This document shows positions 4,710-64,000 of a stretch of DNA of 64,000 nucleotides, piece by piece; position 1 is the first letter of the stretch, and the number at the start of each line of letters is the position of its first letter. This DNA comes from an uncultured Nitrososphaeria archaeon (lineage in GTDB: Archaea; Thermoproteota; Nitrososphaeria_A; Caldarchaeales; Wolframiiraptoraceae): positions 511-64,510 of the forward strand of contig CAZZKR010000007.1 of NCBI GenBank assembly GCA_964655015.1, given 5' to 3'. The notes below the pieces were generated by a model. That model ran no database searches. It worked only from the letters and a program-made list of their open reading frames with translations, and was not told the origin of the DNA. The position numbers and the translations under genes were made by a program.

Positions 4710-5326
4710 GCACGACAGAGTGGGTACCTAAAACAGAACTTGGTAGACTTGTACGGGATGGAAAAATAACATCCATAGATGAAATTTTTTCAAACCATTA
4801 TAAGATAACTGAGCCCCAAATAGTTGACATACTTCTACCAAACCTCGAGCAAGAAGTCTTGGACATAAAACTCGTCCAAAAGCAGACAGATGCAGGCGAG
4901 AAAAGAAGGTACAAAGCAATAGTCGTAGTTGGTAATAGGGACGGGTACGTTGGAATAGGGACAGGAAAGTCAGTCCATATCGTACCAGCCATAGAGAAGG
5001 CAATAAATCAAGCAAAGCTCAACATAATCCCGGTAAGAAGGGGCTGTGGAAGTTGGGAGTGTGCATGCAACGAGTTGCACAGCCTCGTAACGAAGGTTGA
5101 AGGAAAATGGGGGAGTGTGAGGATTGTGTTAATTCCTGCACCAAAAGGCTTAGGTATAGTGGCGGGCGAGATGCAGAAAGCCGTCCTAGAGATGGCAGGC
5201 ATAAAGGACTGCTGGACTAGGAGTTTTGGAGAGACGAGGACGACACTTTCTGTAGTCGGCGCAACATACATGGCACTCAAGAATACGAATAAAATAGTTT
5301 TGCCATCCCTCTGGAAGACTGTTTAG
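4706..5326 (+). CDS. rps5: 30S ribosomal protein uS5
   Basis: WVPKTELGRLV...VQKQTDAGE...VVGNRDGYVG...RRGCGSWEC...PAPKGLG. Confidence 0.97.
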   Translation: MSTTEWVPKTELGRLVRDGKITSIDEIFSNHYKITEPQIVDILLPNLEQEVLDIKLVQKQTDAGEKRRYKAIVVVGNRDGYVGIGTGKSVHIVPAIEKAINQAKLNIIPVRRGCGSWECACNELHSLVTKVEGKWGSVRIVLIPAPKGLGIVAGEMQKAVLEMAGIKDCWTRSFGETRTTLSVVGATYMALKNTNKIVLPSLWKTV

Positions 5327-51067: not shown

Positions 51068-51490
51068 TCAAATGACTATTATGTCTTCCCTAAGAAATTC
51101 TTCATTTTTCTTATCAAAAATCCATGCGGTAACCTCTTCAGGCCTCTTATCGCGTATGGAAACTATAAGGTAGCTCATAGAGGACCAAGCGACTTCTGCA
51201 TCATAGACAGACGGTCTTGCAGGATAATCGGGATGAGAGTGGTATATGCCGACAAGCATCAACCCGTGTCTTTCAGCATCCTTTTCCACGTTGTATATGT
51301 CTAACGCATCAACCATGTATCTCCTCTTTCTATCTCCCACGTAAACGTTTTTACATTTGACAACCTTAACGACAACTTTCCTTTCGTCTTCCCTTTTTCC
51401 TACTAGAAGTCCACAACATTCTTCAGGATAAGTTTCTAAAGCATGTTTGATAACTTCGTCCAGATTGATTTTGCTTATTATGAGTGTCAA
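51068..51490 (-). CDS. JAMM/MPN+ (M67) metalloprotease, Mec/JAMM1-like
   Basis: YPEECCGLL.G...GIYHSHPD..A.PS..D JAMM motif. Confidence 0.92.
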   Translation of the reverse strand: MTLIISKINLDEVIKHALETYPEECCGLLVGKREDERKVVVKVVKCKNVYVGDRKRRYMVDALDIYNVEKDAERHGLMLVGIYHSHPDYPARPSVYDAEVAWSSMSYLIVSIRDKRPEEVTAWIFDKKNEEFLREDIIVI

Positions 51491-57124: not shown

Positions 57125-58714
57125 TTACGTAACGCTCTCCTGTTCCTCTAATTTTACTTTCTCCATAATATCAGGAGTCACGCCCATCTTTTTCAGAAGT
57201 TTCGTGACATCCGGAGGCTCTTTTCTCTCTATAATCTCTGCTGAAAATTTTGCTATCTTCGGAAGGTACTTAGCATATATGCTCAATCTTTTTATCGTAA
57301 TAGTGCGTTTTTCGACCTTTATCAGATAATGCTTGAGAGCTCTAGCGCACTCCCTTATTGCGATAGTGAGTTCGCGCTCGATTTCCGGTCTGTCGGCTAT
57401 TGCCTCTTTGCCTACAGTCTTGTAAGGTACTTTCAGAGAACATATGTGTGTGATGACGGCTAGTGGTGCGATTTTCGGAACATTATAGTTATTCCAATCA
57501 ATTTTTTCAGATACTACCTTCCAAACGACGTCGGCCCTCTCATCGTAAAGGAGCGGTATCTTGTTCGCAAACCTGTATATTTGTATATTCTCACTCGGCG
57601 GTATCTTGCCACCATATGCTATTGCGGCCTCAACTATAAACGGAAAGCCGGAGTAAGATTGTGGCGGTCTTTGAACCACGTGGAGAAACTCTGGCATCAG
57701 TATTGCCTTAATGCCTGCTTCGAGCAATTCCTTGCCTATTGGACTTAGAGGTGTCGGGTCTGGTGCTCTGAATTTTTTATACCTTTTGATAGCCTCTACA
57801 AGTGCAGTAAGCTGATCATGAGTTAATTCTTTTGGATTTAATGTATGCGGAAGCCCAGCTAGTTCCAGAACCTCTTTGGCGGTTTTAGGGCCGACGCGCT
57901 GGAAGCTACCCGTCAAGAAGGATAAAAGGGTTTCAGACTTTGTTAGAGATATTAGCCGCTTCATGGTTTCTACATCAACCCCTACCGGATGTGGTAATGC
58001 CTCTTTTGGAGGTTCTGGTATTTTTTCAGCAACTCTTGGGAAGTGGTATAGTCTGCCCTTAGGATCAATGAAGGTTAATGAAGCATTCGGGTTTGCAATG
58101 GCAGTATTTCTGAAATACTCAACGATCTTTGCCTTGCTGTTGGTGTAATCAGCCTCAAGATAATAATCTATTAACGTTCCCCTCCAATTATCGTTATTTT
58201 TATGAACTTTATGGTCGAGCACTATGGGTTCATTCTTAATAATATCGATTCTTAAAACGAATTCATGTATATCACCATTTGTACATGATATGACGGTCAC
58301 TGGTCTGTTTGTTGTAATCTGGCCGTACAGTAGTGCCATTGTACCGCCAAGTCCGAAAGTTCCACGTGATTGACGGTATCCGTATTTACTTCCATAAAAC
58401 ACAGTCGCAAAAGCATGCGGTATGTGTTCCGCATCAACACCTATTCCATTATCCTTGACCCTCAGCCTGAAGATTTTAACGTCTTCGGAGCTCCCCTCAC
58501 CCACTTCTTGTAATTCGACGATTATTTCAGGCAAGATCCTGCCCACTTCACAGGCATCAAGCGAGTTTTCCACGAGTTCTCTGATGGATGTGTAAAGGGA
58601 ACGGCTGGGGTTTGTGAATCCAGCAATATCTCTATTGCGATAGAAGAAGTCGGCAGGTGATATCTTCTCGAACTTTACCTCTGCCAATTTTCTATCACCA
58701 TTCTTCGATTTCAC
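57125..58714 (-). CDS. top6B: DNA topoisomerase VI subunit B
   Basis: ISPA.FF.RN...AGF.NP.R.LY....EL.ENSLDA GHKL, DNG.G, SRG.FGLG, RFAN.IPLLY, P....GKE.IA. Confidence 0.97.
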   Translation of the reverse strand: MKSKNGDRKLAEVKFEKISPADFFYRNRDIAGFTNPSRSLYTSIRELVENSLDACEVGRILPEIIVELQEVGEGSSEDVKIFRLRVKDNGIGVDAEHIPHAFATVFYGSKYGYRQSRGTFGLGGTMALLYGQITTNRPVTVISCTNGDIHEFVLRIDIIKNEPIVLDHKVHKNNDNWRGTLIDYYLEADYTNSKAKIVEYFRNTAIANPNASLTFIDPKGRLYHFPRVAEKIPEPPKEALPHPVGVDVETMKRLISLTKSETLLSFLTGSFQRVGPKTAKEVLELAGLPHTLNPKELTHDQLTALVEAIKRYKKFRAPDPTPLSPIGKELLEAGIKAILMPEFLHVVQRPPQSYSGFPFIVEAAIAYGGKIPPSENIQIYRFANKIPLLYDERADVVWKVVSEKIDWNNYNVPKIAPLAVITHICSLKVPYKTVGKEAIADRPEIERELTIAIRECARALKHYLIKVEKRTITIKRLSIYAKYLPKIAKFSAEIIERKEPPDVTKLLKKMGVTPDIMEKVKLEEQESVT

Positions 58715-58787
58715 ACCACAAGTTCTGTTACAGGTTTGTTACGCAATTTGGGCATAGCGCCTATTTTATCTTTATCCCAGAAAAATC

Positions 58788-59384
58788 CTATAGTTTAAAT
58801 CCAGGTATAAGTTTTCCCGCTTTTCGCTTCCTAGCGTACTCATCAAGCATTTTATACACTGCACTGTGCGGCGAGCCGGTTATCAGTCTTATTACGGCTT
58901 CTTTAGCAGCTTCGACATCCTGAGGATCACCTATTATTGCCACGGTATCTCCATATATTGACACTAGCACATGAGCATTCTCCTCGATGATTTTTCTTGT
59001 TTTTCCTCCAGTTCCTATAAGTCTGGCCCTAACCCTAACCAAATCATTCACGTTCTTACCGATAAAATCCTCCAAATGTACAATGTCCAACACCACGTCC
59101 TCCTCAAAAAGTTTGAATGCTTTTTCCGGCGAAAAACCTCTCCCTATAGCAACTACGACGTCACGGGCCTTAAACATAGCTGCCGGATCTCCTCCTTCGT
59201 TTGGGGATTTTGCAAGCTCTATTGTCACCACTCCATCTTTGCTATCGACCGTGAGCTTCACACCTAACTTTTCCTCTATTGTCTTCTTAACGGAACCATT
59301 GACCCCTATCAATACGCCTATCCGGTCCTTAGGTATGGTCACTGTAAAGGTTCCGTGCTTTGGCTCCACGTTCTCAGGATACAT
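58788..59384 (-). CDS. KH-domain RNA-processing protein (Dim2/Pno1)
   Basis: IP.DRIGVLIG..G..K...V.AIGRGFSPE.A...R.RARLIG..GKTR.IIEE...G..H..VY. Confidence 0.93.
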   Translation of the reverse strand: MYPENVEPKHGTFTVTIPKDRIGVLIGVNGSVKKTIEEKLGVKLTVDSKDGVVTIELAKSPNEGGDPAAMFKARDVVVAIGRGFSPEKAFKLFEEDVVLDIVHLEDFIGKNVNDLVRVRARLIGTGGKTRKIIEENAHVLVSIYGDTVAIIGDPQDVEAAKEAVIRLITGSPHSAVYKMLDEYARKRKAGKLIPGFKL

Positions 59385-59447
59385 CCCGTTATTTTTCAAA
59401 AATTCTAGTATTATATAAACAACAAACTAATTTCTTCCTTTAGCGTC

Positions 59448-60188
59448 TCAGAAAACGACCTCTGTAGGAAATACGACGATCCCATCCTGTGTTATCTTAT
59501 AGGGTCTCGGCTGGGTGTCGTGATTCACGCCCCTCATCTTCTCGATTATGAAAGCATGGACGAGACTGCCAGCTCTAAAAAATCTTTGTAAAAGTATCAC
59601 GCCATGGGCAACGTACTCTTCAATTTGATACTTTCTTTCAGTTGATGAATGCGTAAGCTCTGAAATCATTAACGTCGTACAATTTAATGGAGCTATGCCC
59701 CGAACCAAGTCAATAATGGCCTCTCTCCTTTCCACCTCATCCGGGTACTGCAATATGAACGTCGAGAGTGTGTCTATAACGAGCCTTTTAGCGTTTATCC
59801 TTTCACACTCCTTTTTTATTTTTTCTATCAAAGATATGAGCTGAAATTCTTTGCTCCCAATGGTTATTTCGCCTAAACTAATGCTCTTTGTTATGAAACG
59901 TATTGGCGAAGCATCAATTATGGCAATTTTATTCTCCTTCTCTAATCTTTCTAAATCCCAACCAAACCTCAGCATGTTAAGCTTAACCATTTCAGGCTCT
60001 TCTTCAAGAAGTACTAAGATGCCATTTTCACCAAATTTAACAGCGCCATTGTAAAGAAACTGGACGCCGAGTGTTGTTTTACCACAACCCGGCGGACCGA
60101 GAACTAGTACCACATGCCCTTTTGGTATGCCGCGCCCCTCTAACATAATATCAATACCTTCTATGCCGGTACGGGTGTATGTTCGCAA
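59448..60188 (-). CDS. Single-domain KaiC/RAD55-family ATPase
   Basis: TGI.G.D.ML...G.P.G...L..G.PG.GKT...QFL..G...RLVID.LS...I.KMRG..H.....Y.IT..G. Confidence 0.9.
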   Translation of the reverse strand: MRTYTRTGIEGIDIMLEGRGIPKGHVVLVLGPPGCGKTTLGVQFLYNGAVKFGENGILVLLEEEPEMVKLNMLRFGWDLERLEKENKIAIIDASPIRFITKSISLGEITIGSKEFQLISLIEKIKKECERINAKRLVIDTLSTFILQYPDEVERREAIIDLVRGIAPLNCTTLMISELTHSSTERKYQIEEYVAHGVILLQRFFRAGSLVHAFIIEKMRGVNHDTQPRPYKITQDGIVVFPTEVVF

Positions 60189-60239
60189 AACTTATCACTC
60201 CATACAGTACACAATAAGTTGTTTTTTAACTTTTTTAAG

Positions 60240-60494
60240 CTATTTAACGCCGCCTCGCCTGCCTCTTTTGGTTGGTGCTTTACTATCGTCCTCCACGTAC
60301 TCCTTTTCGGCTGGATACGTCCCTGTCTTTTTGGATAATTCCTCAAGCTCCTTTACTGCATCTAGATCATCCACTTCAATCACTACTGGTCCGACGTAAC
60401 CACATGAGGCACATCGATATAACATTCCCGCATATCCACCCAAATATAAGTTAATTTTATCGCTTTTACACATAGGACATATTAGAGTTTTCAC
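60240..60494 (-). CDS. Small Zn-ribbon protein
   Basis: CPMCKS...GG..G..YRC..CGY.GP.V.E followed by a charged tail. Confidence 0.7.
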   Translation of the reverse strand: MKTLICPMCKSDKINLYLGGYAGMLYRCASCGYVGPVVIEVDDLDAVKELEELSKKTGTYPAEKEYVEDDSKAPTKRGRRGGVK

Positions 60495-60500
60495 ACATCA

Positions 60501-60944
60501 TCAGAACTCCTCTTTAATCGTAAGAAACGATGCACATGTCATGCTCTTGCCAACCCCCTCAATAGTCCTAAGCTTGTCTATGACGAGTTCACCTATTGAC
60601 TGTATTGACTCCCCTCTTACCTTCAAAAGTATGTCCCACTCGCCAGATATTAGATGAACTTCATGAACGTCGGGTAACGTTGCTATGTATTCACCAAGCT
60701 TTTTCTGGGAAATGTTCGCTCCCGGAAGAAAGGATATTAATACGAATGCCGTCGTTGGCTTACCGAGCTTCGAGTAATCTGGTATTACAGTAAATTTTTT
60801 AATTATCCCCTTGCTCCTTAGTTTCTTTATCCTTTCTTGAACAGTCGTCCTTGGCATGTTAAGCTTTATTGCAAGCTCCGAAATACTTTGACTAGCATCC
60901 TCAATAAGTTCATTTAATATTTTCCAGTCTTTTTCGTCCATCAT
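60501..60944 (-). CDS. Lrp/AsnC family transcriptional regulator
   Basis: MDEKD.KIL.EL..DA.....ELA..L.....TV.ERI.KL...GIIK.F; RAM domain H.ISGE.D; ATG at 60944. Confidence 0.94.
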   Translation of the reverse strand: MMDEKDWKILNELIEDASQSISELAIKLNMPRTTVQERIKKLRSKGIIKKFTVIPDYSKLGKPTTAFVLISFLPGANISQKKLGEYIATLPDVHEVHLISGEWDILLKVRGESIQSIGELVIDKLRTIEGVGKSMTCASFLTIKEEF

Positions 60945-61035
60945 CTCACTATAAAATAATATTAATGGTTGCTTTTGGTTCTTACTCCTATAATGTTTAG
61001 TGTTATTCATTAAAAGACGAATTAAGGTAAAGGTG

Positions 61036-61851
61036 TCAGCTGGTAGTGGAAGCTTGCGCCTCCTTCCAGATAAGTATTATTGCATATTCCCTAGGTATGC
61101 CCAAAGACTGCATAATGTTTTCTATGTTTTTTTGCAAAGATTCATCAACTCTTGGACCAAACTTCGCTCCATGCTTTTCTTTCAACTCTTCATAAAGTTT
61201 GTCAGCAAGCTCAGTGTACGCCGTTAAGGAGTAAATTTTTTTCGGCAAGTCAGTAACCATCCTGGCCATTTCTTCTAACTCTCTAATCCTCTTTTTCTTC
61301 TCGGAAAGTTCTTGTCTGAGAACTGTGATTTTTGTCTCTAAGCTTGCTTTAAGCTCCTGAGATACGGGAACGTTCGAACTTTCTTTATATTTCAGCGTAT
61401 CCAATTCGACGATCGAGATACATAAATCTGTCTCGATATTTGAAAACTCTGCCTCCAGTTTACTCTTAGCTGCATTAATTTTTTCAAGCAAGGATGCCGA
61501 CTCATTAATTATTTGCTCCCTCATCATGTTCCACCTTGATAATATCTCCTTGATGGTTGTTATGCTAATGTCCTGCTCCAGAAGCATCTTTTGGAATATT
61601 TGCTCCCGTATCTTTATCTCTTGTAACTTTGCCATGAGCGCATCATATCCTTCGAAAGCTTCTTTTACAACAGATGCCTCGAGGCCCTTAGATGTTACAA
61701 TACTCTCGGGCGGTTTTGTTTGAATTTTTGCCTCAATTTCTGGAGCGCTCACCTCAGGCTCTACTTGAGAAACCTCTTCTATTGCATCCTTCGCCATTTT
61801 TTCTTCCTTAAACTTTATAACTATCTTTTTCGGCATTATGGCTCCTCCCAA
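61036..61851 (-). CDS. Coiled-coil protein, possibly CdvA-like
   Basis: Disordered acidic N-terminus then long heptad helices; segment KMLLEQDISITTIKEIL resembles the CdvA-type L...G.IS..TY.E pattern. Confidence 0.55.
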   Translation of the reverse strand: MGGAIMPKKIVIKFKEEKMAKDAIEEVSQVEPEVSAPEIEAKIQTKPPESIVTSKGLEASVVKEAFEGYDALMAKLQEIKIREQIFQKMLLEQDISITTIKEILSRWNMMREQIINESASLLEKINAAKSKLEAEFSNIETDLCISIVELDTLKYKESSNVPVSQELKASLETKITVLRQELSEKKKRIRELEEMARMVTDLPKKIYSLTAYTELADKLYEELKEKHGAKFGPRVDESLQKNIENIMQSLGIPREYAIILIWKEAQASTTS

Positions 61852-61884
61852 CTAAACTTCGGTCTTTGAGGAATCAACACAATT

Positions 61885-62520
61885 TCATCCCTTCTTACTC
61901 GGTAAAAGTTTTTTGGTTTTGCTAAAAAACTTTACTATGTGATCGATATCAAGTATTTTGGCAGTACTAGTCTTTACGCTCTCCTCATCGAGAACGTCGG
62001 CTTTCTTGGGGATCAAATCAAGCATTTGGAGACCGATTAGTGTGCTTTCAAGGACCTTACGCCGCTGCAGACCAAGCGTGAACCTTACTGGCACAACCCT
62101 TTCATTTTTATCTATTCTAAACACACCGATCTTTAGATCCGAGACTTTCCAGCTGACGCTAAATTGTAGGGGGTCTATAACTAACGCAATGGCCTTAGGA
62201 AACATGGCTTGGTACGCTTTTTGCGTCTCGACATCGATGGGCGACATAAAGACGTCTAAACCCGGATGTGAATGATACCAACCAACTATGTATAGGTCCG
62301 GAAGGTTTTCCATTAGGACTTCAGCAACTAAGGCCATAACGCTCTCTTCGAGCTTAACGTATGCGGGCGTGCTTTGTTGGATACCAGTAACAGCATCCCA
62401 GACCTCAACAACGTCCGATACTACTTTTCCTACCATCAACCCTGCAACTTCTTGATTAATGTTACTAATAGAGTGATAAAGTATCTTACCAAGAGCCAGA
62501 GGATAAATGCGTGCCCTCAT
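61885..62520 (-). CDS. Rpn11-like JAMM deubiquitinase / pro-ubiquitin processing protease
   Basis: EV.GL.VG...VGWYHSHPGL.VFMS.IDV.TQ..YQ......A.ALV.DP, close to the eukaryotic Rpn11 pattern. Confidence 0.9.
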   Translation of the reverse strand: MRARIYPLALGKILYHSISNINQEVAGLMVGKVVSDVVEVWDAVTGIQQSTPAYVKLEESVMALVAEVLMENLPDLYIVGWYHSHPGLDVFMSPIDVETQKAYQAMFPKAIALVIDPLQFSVSWKVSDLKIGVFRIDKNERVVPVRFTLGLQRRKVLESTLIGLQMLDLIPKKADVLDEESVKTSTAKILDIDHIVKFFSKTKKLLPSKKG

Positions 62521-62715: not shown

Positions 62716-62997
62716 ATGAAAATTAAGGTTATACCTGCGGTTGGTGGTGGTAGCCCTCTAGAATTAGAGGTATCGCCGAATGCAACAATAGGGGCAATTA
62801 AGGCTAAGGTTTGCGCGATTAAGAAACTTCCGCCAGATACTACATACCTAACCTACAAGGGTAGAGCCCTTAAAGAAACGGAAACGCTTACTGAATTAGG
62901 TATATCGGAGGGCGACAAATTGGTCATCATAACGAGAACAGTGGGGGGTGACGCCACTGGAAACTTATTCAGAATTACCCGAACCTCTATGGAATAA
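62716..62997 (+). CDS. Eukaryote-like pro-ubiquitin (78-aa mature domain ending TRTVGG plus 15-aa propeptide)
   Basis: Beta-grasp Ub pattern LEV.P..TI..IK.KV......P.....L.YKGR.LK....L.E.GI.EGD.L....R..GG; closely resembles Caldiarchaeum subterraneum ubiquitin as I recall it. Confidence 0.92.
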   Translation: MKIKVIPAVGGGSPLELEVSPNATIGAIKAKVCAIKKLPPDTTYLTYKGRALKETETLTELGISEGDKLVIITRTVGGDATGNLFRITRTSME

Positions 62998-63463
62998 GAG
63001 GTTAGCCGTAGAATATAGGTTGATGCAGGAGCGTGACCCTCCGTTATTTGATATAATTGACGGGGACTTGACACACTATATGGGCATAATAGTGGGCTCC
63101 GGGTATTATGAGGGTGGCTACTTTAAGGTAGAGATAAAAATACCAAGAGCGTATCCGTACGTGCCGCCAGATGTTATTTGGCATACAAGGATATGGCATC
63201 CTAATTTCACAGATGAGGTTCCTGCCAAAATATGCGAATCCATTTTTAAAGATGATTGGAGACCTGGTTTGTATCTCGTGAATGTCATCGAGGCTCTCCA
63301 GAATCTACTAGCCAACCCGAACCCGGATGACCCACTTAACTCGATAGCAGCTTATGAAATGAAGTATAAGCCCGACGTTTTTTTCAATAGGGTTAAGTAC
63401 TACATACAGCTCTATGCAACTCCAGAAAAGGTTTTTGATAAAAAGCTAAAGTGGCGAATGTAG
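62948..63463 (+). CDS. E2 ubiquitin-conjugating enzyme
   Basis: KRL..EY..M, Y.GG.F...I..P..YP..PP.V.W.T.IWHPN, catalytic Cys in KICESI, W.P, LL..PN.DDPLN. Confidence 0.95.
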   Translation: MTPLETYSELPEPLWNKRLAVEYRLMQERDPPLFDIIDGDLTHYMGIIVGSGYYEGGYFKVEIKIPRAYPYVPPDVIWHTRIWHPNFTDEVPAKICESIFKDDWRPGLYLVNVIEALQNLLANPNPDDPLNSIAAYEMKYKPDVFFNRVKYYIQLYATPEKVFDKKLKWRM

Positions 63464-63557: not shown

Positions 63558-64000
63558 ATGGAGCCATATCTGCTGGAAAGATATGATAGGCAGATAAGAA
63601 TCAGTGGTTGGGACCAGTGGAAGGTCTCAAACTCAACAGTTTTAATAGCGGGCGTGGGTGCAACAGGTTGCGAGTTAGCAAAGAACCTTTGTCTTGCGGG
63701 AATTGGTAGGCTGATCTTGGTTGACAACGACGTGGTAGAACTCTCAAATCTTAACCGTCAAATGTTGTTTGATGATTCTGATATAGGCTTACCAAAAGCC
63801 ATAGTTGCCAGAGAAAAGCTTCAGAAGATGAACCCTTATGTTAAGATTGATGCCTATTATGAGGACTTAAGAAAGTTTGATGAATTTATACTAAAGGATG
63901 TGGACGTGTTTTGCTCTTGCCTAGATAACTGGGCAACGAGAAGATGGCTCAACTCGCTTGCCGTTGAACTTAAGAAGCCACTCGTTGACACAGCGATCGA
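63558..64000 (+). CDS. E1 ubiquitin-activating enzyme (partial, runs off the window)
   Basis: Hand-translated MEPYLLERYDRQIRISGWDQWKVSNSTVLIAGVGATGCELAKNLCLAGIGRLILVDNDVVELSNLNRQMLF...CLDNWATRRWLN; open to 64000. Confidence 0.92.
   Translation, partial: MEPYLLERYDRQIRISGWDQWKVSNSTVLIAGVGATGCELAKNLCLAGIGRLILVDNDVVELSNLNRQMLFDDSDIGLPKAIVAREKLQKMNPYVKIDAYYEDLRKFDEFILKDVDVFCSCLDNWATRRWLNSLAVELKKPLVDTAI

Follow-up and report, generated by a model that had tools for sequence, protein, structure and literature searches.

A helical protein encoded directly downstream of the Rpn11-like deubiquitinase in Caldarchaeales, a candidate accessory of an archaeal ubiquitin system

Directly downstream of the Rpn11-like JAMM deubiquitinase gene in a 64,000-nucleotide stretch of archaeal DNA (the whole of which we call the window) lies a gene for an all-helical protein that belongs to a small family found in Caldarchaeales and that keeps its place beside the deubiquitinase gene in every carrying locus examined. 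We tentatively read this protein as a lineage-specific, non-catalytic accessory of Rpn11, made from the same transcript and acting as an adaptor or regulator.

Caldarchaeales are the order in which an archaeal ubiquitin system was first described, and the aigarchaeal cassette of Ub, E1, E2, RING and Rpn11 genes serves as the most closely studied prokaryotic model of how eukaryotic ubiquitylation arose. The cassette has been reconstituted from five proteins, with the gene for the helical protein lying outside those reconstitutions.

The ubiquitin cassette and its neighbouring gene

A eukaryote-type ubiquitin cassette (Table 1) occupies the final 3 kb of the window, and its ubiquitin and JAMM genes are transcribed divergently. 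Its make-up is like that of the cassette of C. subterraneum (Ub, E2, E1, srfp and a divergent Rpn11; Nunoura 2011, Hennell James 2017, Fuchs 2018). The JAMM protein is orthologous to C. subterraneum Rpn11, which has been crystallised (PDB 6FJU, E 2e-60), and has an intact metal site of the form E...HxH...S..D (QEVAG; GWYHSHPGLDVFMSPID), and its gene has a dN/dS of 0.06-0.10.

Table 1. Features of the window discussed in the text, in window coordinates
Feature	Coordinates	Strand	Basis
CdvB2-like ESCRT-III paralogue, 202 aa	30072..30680	(-)	PDB 9S97 'Cell division protein B2', E 1.8e-21, residues 20-189
Helical-protein gene, 266 aa, stop codon included	61036..61836	(-)	Family size, taxonomy, purifying selection
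Helical body, residues 54-266	61039..61677	(-)	AlphaFold2 pLDDT 75-98, mostly >90; pTM 0.68
Variable acidic linker, residues 11-53, predicted disordered	61678..61806	(-)	pLDDT 28-42
N-terminal basic-hydrophobic peptide MPKKIVIKFK	61807..61836	(-)	Family alignments
48-nt spacer, JAMM stop to helical-protein ATG	61837..61884	(-)	GGAGG; without a T run of at least 5
Rpn11-like JAMM deubiquitinase, 211 aa	61885..62520	(-)	Pfam JAB, E 8e-20
JAMM C-terminal tail, residues 192-211, ILDIDHIVKFFSKTKKLLPSKKG, basic amphipathic helix	61888..61947	(-)	Homologue-cluster comparison
Ubiquitin, C-terminal propeptide after RTVGG	62716..62997	(+)	Pfam ubiquitin, E 8.5e-13; orthologue alignment
E2 ubiquitin-conjugating enzyme	62948..63463	(+)	Pfam UQ_con, E 6.5e-28
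E1-like (ThiF) enzyme, truncated by window end	63558..64000	(+)	Pfam ThiF, E 2.8e-46

The longest open reading frame after the JAMM gene, 61036-61851(-), encodes 271 aa from a TTG 33 nt past the JAMM stop, and the initial annotation had given the gene this length and gap. Its placement stands, but its start and length have to be revised. Homologues all begin with MPKK, and a GGAGG at 61844-61848 lies 7 nt upstream of the ATG at 61836, so that this ATG, rather than the TTG, is most likely the start, giving a protein of 266 aa and a gap of 48 nt instead of 33. The same GGAGG is present ahead of the gene in Terraquivivens relatives. Measured with four Terraquivivens orthologues, the helical-protein gene has a dN/dS of 0.07-0.13, near that of the JAMM gene, from which we take it to be a real gene under constraint. 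In the window, the two reading frames are in the same frame, with a TGA and a TAG between them.

A family confined to Caldarchaeales

The family is small. A word-indexed search returned 13 clusters at 90% identity, and an exhaustive phmmer search of 1.8 billion representatives returned only 14 clusters at 50% identity. A profile search reaching past Caldarchaeales yielded nothing new, the extra sequences all being from Caldarchaeales. By phmmer and profile search, the family is confined to Caldarchaeales (Aigarchaeota) genomes, the closest being those of Candidatus Terraquivivens species (Caldarchaeales/Aigarchaeota). In a MAG labelled C. subterraneum, a family member adjoins the Rpn11 gene (consecutive tags EYH45_00970 and EYH45_00975).

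Named members are entered as ‘hypothetical protein’ or under the automatic labels ‘MerR regulator’, ‘chromosome segregation ATPase’ and ‘barstar’, for which no support was found in profile scans or in the fold search. That the protein is a DNA-binding transcriptional regulator, as the MerR label implies, or an SMC-like chromosome protein seems to us barely credible: the automatic names come from one source, and an Lrp/AsnC gene follows in some genomes, but HTH, MerR and SMC models all stay below threshold (Pfam, NCBIfam, PADLOC) as coiled-coil noise, the ATPase head is absent and the predicted fold has no winged helix. At the sequence level, the MerR and SMC assignments are effectively refuted.

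Term searches of the three studies of the C. subterraneum cassette (Nunoura 2011, Hennell James 2017, Fuchs 2018) brought up no mention of the helical-protein gene, and in Nunoura et al. the CDSs flanking that cassette are given as hypothetical proteins only. Likewise, full-text literature searches on Aigarchaeota with Rpn11 or CdvA yielded no description of the gene. The protein would thus stand for an undescribed and unnamed family and, should our tentative reading hold, for a JAMM accessory non-homologous to the known ones.

A conserved pair with variable flanks

Genomic context was taken for members across the whole family and for six genome representatives. In all distinct loci that carry it (15/15), the helical-protein gene is the next gene 3' of the JAMM gene and shares its strand, with a spacing between the two of -4 to +50 nt across these 15 loci. 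The pairing is kept in members that share as little as 23-27% identity with the window protein, and 4-nt overlaps of stop and start codons, seen in loci L012, L014 and L016, are retained at about 25% identity.

The genes on either side of the pair vary. On the downstream side, they include those for Lrp/AsnC, lysyl-tRNA synthetase, a DNA methyltransferase, a beta-CASP nuclease and ChsH2 or, on the opposite strand, ribosomal protein S7. On the upstream side, a divergent Ub-E2-E1 block is found in L001-5, L016 and L022, whereas unrelated genes take its place in L012 and L014/15 and a RING-domain gene does so in L018/19. Because the flanks change while the pair stays, we regard the two-gene pair, not the whole cassette, as the conserved unit. 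The initial annotation had asked whether the gene flanks Rpn11 in other genomes and keeps its link to the ubiquitin operon. The former was borne out in every carrying locus, and the latter extends to the Rpn11 gene throughout but to the Ub-E2-E1 block in only some loci.

Context look-ups that start from the helical protein favour recovery of the pair, and three JAMM homologues were therefore looked up directly. For one of them, a TM-tailed JAMM protein (L022), the helical gene again lies downstream. The other two (L020 and L021) belong to an abundant clade of 207-209-aa JAMM proteins; Ub and E2 genes are present at both loci, and L021 also has E1 and RING genes. Downstream of these two JAMM genes lies rpl21e-rpb4, and no copy of the helical gene was found within 4 kb. 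The helical protein would therefore be an accessory in part of the order only, neither universal nor essential to the system.

Overlapping stop and start codons and an SD motif before the ATG are typical of operon-internal genes in archaea. The SD motif in the window and the overlaps in relatives lend indirect support to co-transcription of the JAMM and helical genes.

A functionally unrelated helical or structural protein could also have come to sit next to the JAMM gene simply through inherited gene order, an explanation that we find rather unlikely. The family is restricted to one order, one Rpn11 clade does without the protein, and in Terraquivivens the pair lies inside a longer series of genes read in the same direction (Lrp, Zn-ribbon, KaiC-like, Dim2, Top6B) that share no evident function, all of which would suit a passive association, as would the absence of a predicted contact between the two proteins in an AlphaFold2 pseudo-fusion built on a shallow unpaired alignment (see “A proposed accessory of the deubiquitinase”). 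However, both flanks have been rearranged repeatedly with the pair left intact, and overlaps that outlast such sequence divergence would scarcely be expected unless co-expression were selected for. Part of the adjacency, which is seen within one order, could still be inherited synteny.

Sequence plan and predicted structure

An alignment of 18 members reveals a four-part plan of N-peptide, acidic stretch, helical body and C-terminal helix. The N-peptide follows a pattern of two to three basic residues, three aliphatic ones (I/V) and then one basic residue; in distant members it reads RKRIIIRRR or RRRIVIRRR, with arginines in place of lysines. It is found in all members once the starts of L014 and L011, which had been called or matched without it, are re-read, and a search for the motif in the other proteins of the window gave no second meaningful carrier. 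The stretch behind it is acidic, with a pI of 4.6 for residues 13-53. Conservation in the body is concentrated in the patch LPKKI..LT.YTE and in the very conserved C-terminal helix GIPREYAIILIWK, and E135, E167, Y251 and A252 are invariant (18/18 members).

The AlphaFold2 model has residues 1-53 disordered, five long helices (predicted at 47-87, 92-153, 160-205, 208-245 and 249-265) and zero beta strand. The initial annotation had described a coiled-coil protein without a PRC-barrel. The missing barrel and the all-helical character are upheld by the model, but the helices are predicted to pack as an antiparallel bundle rather than an extended coiled coil.

The N-peptide also bears on the idea that the protein is not a subunit of the enzyme at all but its dedicated substrate, a ubiquitin receptor or a ubiquitin-regulated target, which we consider improbable. 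Either its N-peptide would pair with the conserved acidic beta-2 strand of ubiquitin (PLELEV), as a SUMO-interaction motif does with its partner, or the neighbouring enzymes would modify and recycle the protein. The aliphatic triplet beside charged flanks resembles a beta-augmentation motif, and the linkage to a ubiquitin-system gene is conserved. The beta-2 strand, P[LIV]EL[ED]V, is invariant in 8/8 aligned orthologues, but ubiquitin is just as conserved in the clade without the helical protein, which amounts to no co-variation, and Pfam scans gave no UIM, UBA or CUE matches. Moreover, the lysines of the N-motif become arginines in distant members (RRRIVIRRR), which speaks against a conserved acceptor site and leads us to favour a contact based on charge, whether its partner is an acidic protein surface or anionic lipids.

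Relation to CdvA and ESCRT-III

CdvA is encoded together with cdvB and cdvC, and its helical domain is Pfam PF18822. The initial annotation had seen a CdvA-like pattern in the helices of the window protein and a possible link between ubiquitin and ESCRT. Neither CdvA nor PRC was matched by the window protein in an hmmscan against Pfam-A (E <= 10; PF18822 expected in the library), and neither is among the 25 families with most member matches listed when the 18 members were scanned against Pfam-A. Pfam matches of the helical protein are limited to sub-threshold coiled-coil families. The PDB profile search returned coiled-coil noise, with prefoldin beta as the best natural protein (E 0.005), and Foldseek against the PDB gave zero matches at E <= 0.001, the best 50 matches listed being generic helical bundles with E of at least 0.013 and a TM-score of at most 0.4. 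With no CdvA similarity found by Pfam scan, PDB profile search or Foldseek, membership of the helical protein in the CdvA family is not supported, as judged from its sequence and predicted model.

The best structural and profile matches, namely AhlC/ClyA-type soluble forms, HlyD, SMC coiled-coil fragments and prefoldin beta, are generic helical-bundle resemblances that reflect helix packing only, not homology. A very remote resemblance to CdvA of the ‘helical hairpin’ kind, a topic of Makarova et al. (PMC11188069), is still conceivable. ESCRT-III/PspA/Vipp1 was likewise rejected as a candidate family, with no Snf7 match and no such chain among the best 50 Foldseek PDB matches.

According to PMC5840170, CdvA has an N-terminal PRC barrel followed by a long helical domain, then an unstructured region and, at its C-terminus, the E3B strand, by which the winged helix of CdvB is completed. 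With the CdvA of Sulfolobales and Thaumarchaeota, the helical protein shares a long helical domain and an unstructured stretch with a short beta-prone peptide, and both proteins occur in TACK lineages having CdvB and CdvC. The helical protein differs, however, in having neither a PRC barrel nor a match to CdvA models and in its reversed order of domains: its C-terminus is without a conserved unstructured peptide, the conserved peptide being N-terminal. Furthermore, it lies beside Rpn11 in all carrying loci examined, and cdvB/cdvC neighbours were not seen there.

An orphan CdvB is present in the window, as the initial annotation had noted, and it matches CdvB2 (Table 1); its Pfam Snf7 match (E 2.5e-5) is under the cut-off. 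The gene is 31 kb from the helical gene and unlinked to it. The length of this paralogue and the span over which it aligns leave no room for a winged-helix domain.

We consider it very unlikely that the helical protein acts as an analogue of CdvA, recruiting CdvB/ESCRT-III to the membrane or coupling ubiquitin signalling to division in Aigarchaeota. PMC3082918 reports CdvB and CdvC in C. subterraneum and no CdvA, and the peptide-tether-helices layout is a reversed echo of the CdvA architecture (PMC5840170), but no CdvA family is listed in the Pfam scans, the PRC barrel is absent and the best 50 Foldseek matches contain no ESCRT-type fold. The CdvB2-like gene does lie inside the window, but at such a distance, and its product is too short to offer the winged helix that CdvA binds. 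A basic-hydrophobic N-terminus and the membrane-type tails of Rpn11 (see below) are compatible with a membrane location; a Snf7/Vps4 gene, on the other hand, occurs in 0/13 related loci with gene tables, and the proposed link between ubiquitin and ESCRT finds no backing there.

Rpn11 C-terminal tails and the membrane

A TM-like segment, defined as a 19-residue window with mean hydropathy above 2.2 (observed 2.7-3.2), ends the protein in 14 of the 120 clusters of JAMM homologues. The remaining clusters have a conserved basic amphipathic C-terminal helix, e.g. IVKFFSKTKKLL or SVIKKFKEKL, with a best 14-residue helical hydrophobic moment, taken within the last 30 residues, that averages about 0.57. 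Exchange of a TM anchor for an amphipathic helix at the very C-terminal end is typical of membrane-targeting sequences, as in MinD and FtsA. From the sequences of these tails, we infer that Rpn11 may bind membranes through its C-terminus. According to Fuchs et al., the C-terminal helices of Rpn11 are dispensable for catalysis (PMC6043591). Rpn11 near the membrane would fit a broader idea of contact between the ubiquitin system and membranes; an ESCRT link was not found.

A fuller membrane reading can be drawn up, to which we assign a low probability. Rpn11 of Caldarchaeales would be a membrane-proximal deubiquitinase, tail-anchored through a TM helix in some lineages and a basic amphipathic helix in others, and the helical protein its dedicated scaffold, with a tethered basic-hydrophobic N-peptide that binds membrane or ubiquitin, together forming a primitive, non-homologous counterpart of AMSH-STAM or of Rpn11 in the lid. 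On the same reading, the pair is possibly the missing membrane adaptor in a group that has CdvB and CdvC and is without CdvA. As a separate observation, the TM or amphipathic tails of the Rpn11 proteins partnering the family hint at a membrane location.

A proposed accessory of the deubiquitinase

Survival of the pair through rearrangement of its flanks, the overlaps, the SD motif and the similar constraint on both genes argue for co-expression and joint function with Rpn11. The initial annotation had offered, as a fallback, that the protein is a substrate or adaptor of the deubiquitinase, and this remains the best reading. The function of the helical protein is predicted from gene order alone, and we give its accessory role a little less than an even chance.

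In eukaryotes, JAMM deubiquitinases generally pair with non-catalytic partners (Rpn8, CSN6, Abraxas, STAM). If it is an accessory, the helical protein would likewise be a dedicated, co-expressed and non-enzymatic companion, as in Rpn8/Rpn11, CSN6/CSN5, Abraxas(KIAA0157)/BRCC36 and STAM/AMSH. Long helices abound in it, as they do in Abraxas and the lid subunits, and could bundle with the C-terminal helices of the enzyme. An MPN domain is absent from it, and neither its sequence nor its fold is detectably similar to Rpn8, CSN6, Abraxas or STAM. An MPN-minus partner of the Rpn8/CSN6/Abraxas type was rejected, the JAB/MPN match being absent and the fold all-helical. In contrast to the eukaryotic systems, moreover, the archaeal enzyme is active without a partner (PMC6043591), and recombinant CsRpn11 is described as active by itself in PMC5654768 and PMC6043591.

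The read-through translation of both reading frames was folded as a single-chain pseudo-fusion (AlphaFold2, shallow unpaired alignment). In this monomer model, built from a shallow unpaired alignment, pTM was 0.50, both domains were confident and no contact between them was predicted; pLDDT stayed at 26-50 in residues 153-211, the C-terminal region of the JAMM protein, and in residues 229-276 of the fusion, where the N-tail of the helical protein lies. In the MAFFT alignment of the pseudo-fusion, the short N-motif tends to land on the similar JAMM C-tail ‘IVKFF’. No natural fusion of JAMM and helical proteins was found in the databases searched with phmmer and profiles.

As we envisage it, the helical protein and the Rpn11-like enzyme would be made from one transcript and work together. 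The helical body would serve as a structural or assembly part, and the N-peptide, carried on an acidic flexible tether of about 40 residues, would act as a short docking motif, reaching an acidic surface of ubiquitin, of the enzyme or of a substrate, or else the membrane. Given the TM or amphipathic C-termini of Rpn11, the pair may act near the membrane.

Implications

Should the helical protein not bind Rpn11, it would be no more than a hypothetical protein specific to one lineage. If the membrane-type C-termini of Rpn11 are confirmed, they would point to membrane proteins as the natural substrates of the enzyme. As a sixth gene, coupled to Rpn11 across most of the order and, in some loci, by overlapping stop and start codons, the helical-protein gene is a candidate specificity or localisation factor of the ubiquitin cassette. 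If the protein truly binds Rpn11, JAMM deubiquitinases would have gained non-catalytic partners of their own before eukaryotes arose, along a path that has nothing to do with MPN-MPN pairing.

Gene organization around the JAMM gene

The gene for the Rpn11-like JAMM deubiquitinase opens a run of co-directional genes spaced 6-73 nt apart; it is followed, in order, by those for its all-helical partner protein, Lrp/AsnC, an 84-aa Zn-ribbon protein, a KaiC-like ATPase, a Dim2-like KH protein and Top6B, an order shared by two loci of relatives, L003 and L004. The window also encodes a second JAMM protein, of the prokaryote type (Prok-JAB, E = 1e-23); its gene adjoins a cysteine-synthase-like gene, and the protein is unrelated to the Rpn11-like enzyme.

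Coordinates of the features discussed, in the window and in loci of relatives (L-numbers)
Feature	Location	Strand
Run from JAMM gene to Top6B	window 57125-62520	-
Junction of JAMM and helical-protein frames	window 61852-61887	-
Rpn11-like C-terminal tail	window 61888-61947	-
Prokaryote-type JAMM gene	window 51068-51490	-
Ubiquitin gene	window 62716-62997	
Helical-protein start region	L014:5241-5312	
207-209-aa Rpn11-like clade	L020:4001-4995; L021:4001-4981	
Three further conserved genes	L001:1023-2983; L003/L004:168-2119; L021:1-1378; L022:1-1464	

At the junction in the window, the JAMM and helical-protein reading frames coincide, with only TGA and TAG between them, and in L003 the JAMM frame extends into an overlap with the next start. 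Because the two frames differ in the other relatives, nothing suggests programmed read-through of the pair. In L014 and L015 the deposited calls begin the helical protein too far downstream, with a Leu codon; in L014, a GTG at 5241, overlapping the JAMM stop by 4 nt, restores its conserved RRRIIIRKK motif. P0192, a 126-aa JGI protein, joins the first ~114 residues of the helical protein to the last 12 of the neighbouring JAMM protein (QLIARLVWWRAR), a chimera that probably either arose by misassembly or represents a deletion variant.

The helical partner gene is absent from one abundant Rpn11-like clade (207-209-aa products), where rpl21e-rpb4-DUF655-ksgA lies downstream in its place. The loci of this clade looked at here, L020 and L021, carry ubiquitin and E2, and L021 additionally E1 and a RING gene.

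Ubiquitin and its neighbourhood in relatives

Past E1 and the small RING protein, in a region that the window stops short of, relatives carry three more conserved genes: one directly after the RING gene (103-116-aa product) and a divergent one (277-281 aa), both without a Pfam match, and one for a RING-domain protein (231-243 aa). All three also occur in a locus without the helical partner. Across the window, L001-L003, L016 and L020-L022, ubiquitin is nearly invariant through RTVGG, followed by a highly variable C-terminal propeptide of 0 to 21 residues. The propeptide is missing in L016 and L021, so not all lineages require pro-Ub processing by Rpn11.

C-terminal tails of the Rpn11-like proteins

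Rpn11-like proteins end in a transmembrane helix in 14 of 120 clusters; the alternative end in the group is a conserved basic amphipathic helix. This observation on the two kinds of tail draws on the window, on loci L002, L011, L017 and L022 and on homologues P0124, P0139-40, P0143, P0152, P0165, P0169-75, P0178 and P0180-81. The literature consulted contains no mention of such membrane-type tails. Transmembrane or amphipathic, these predicted tails suggest that the Rpn11-like deubiquitinase of this group may be membrane-targeted.
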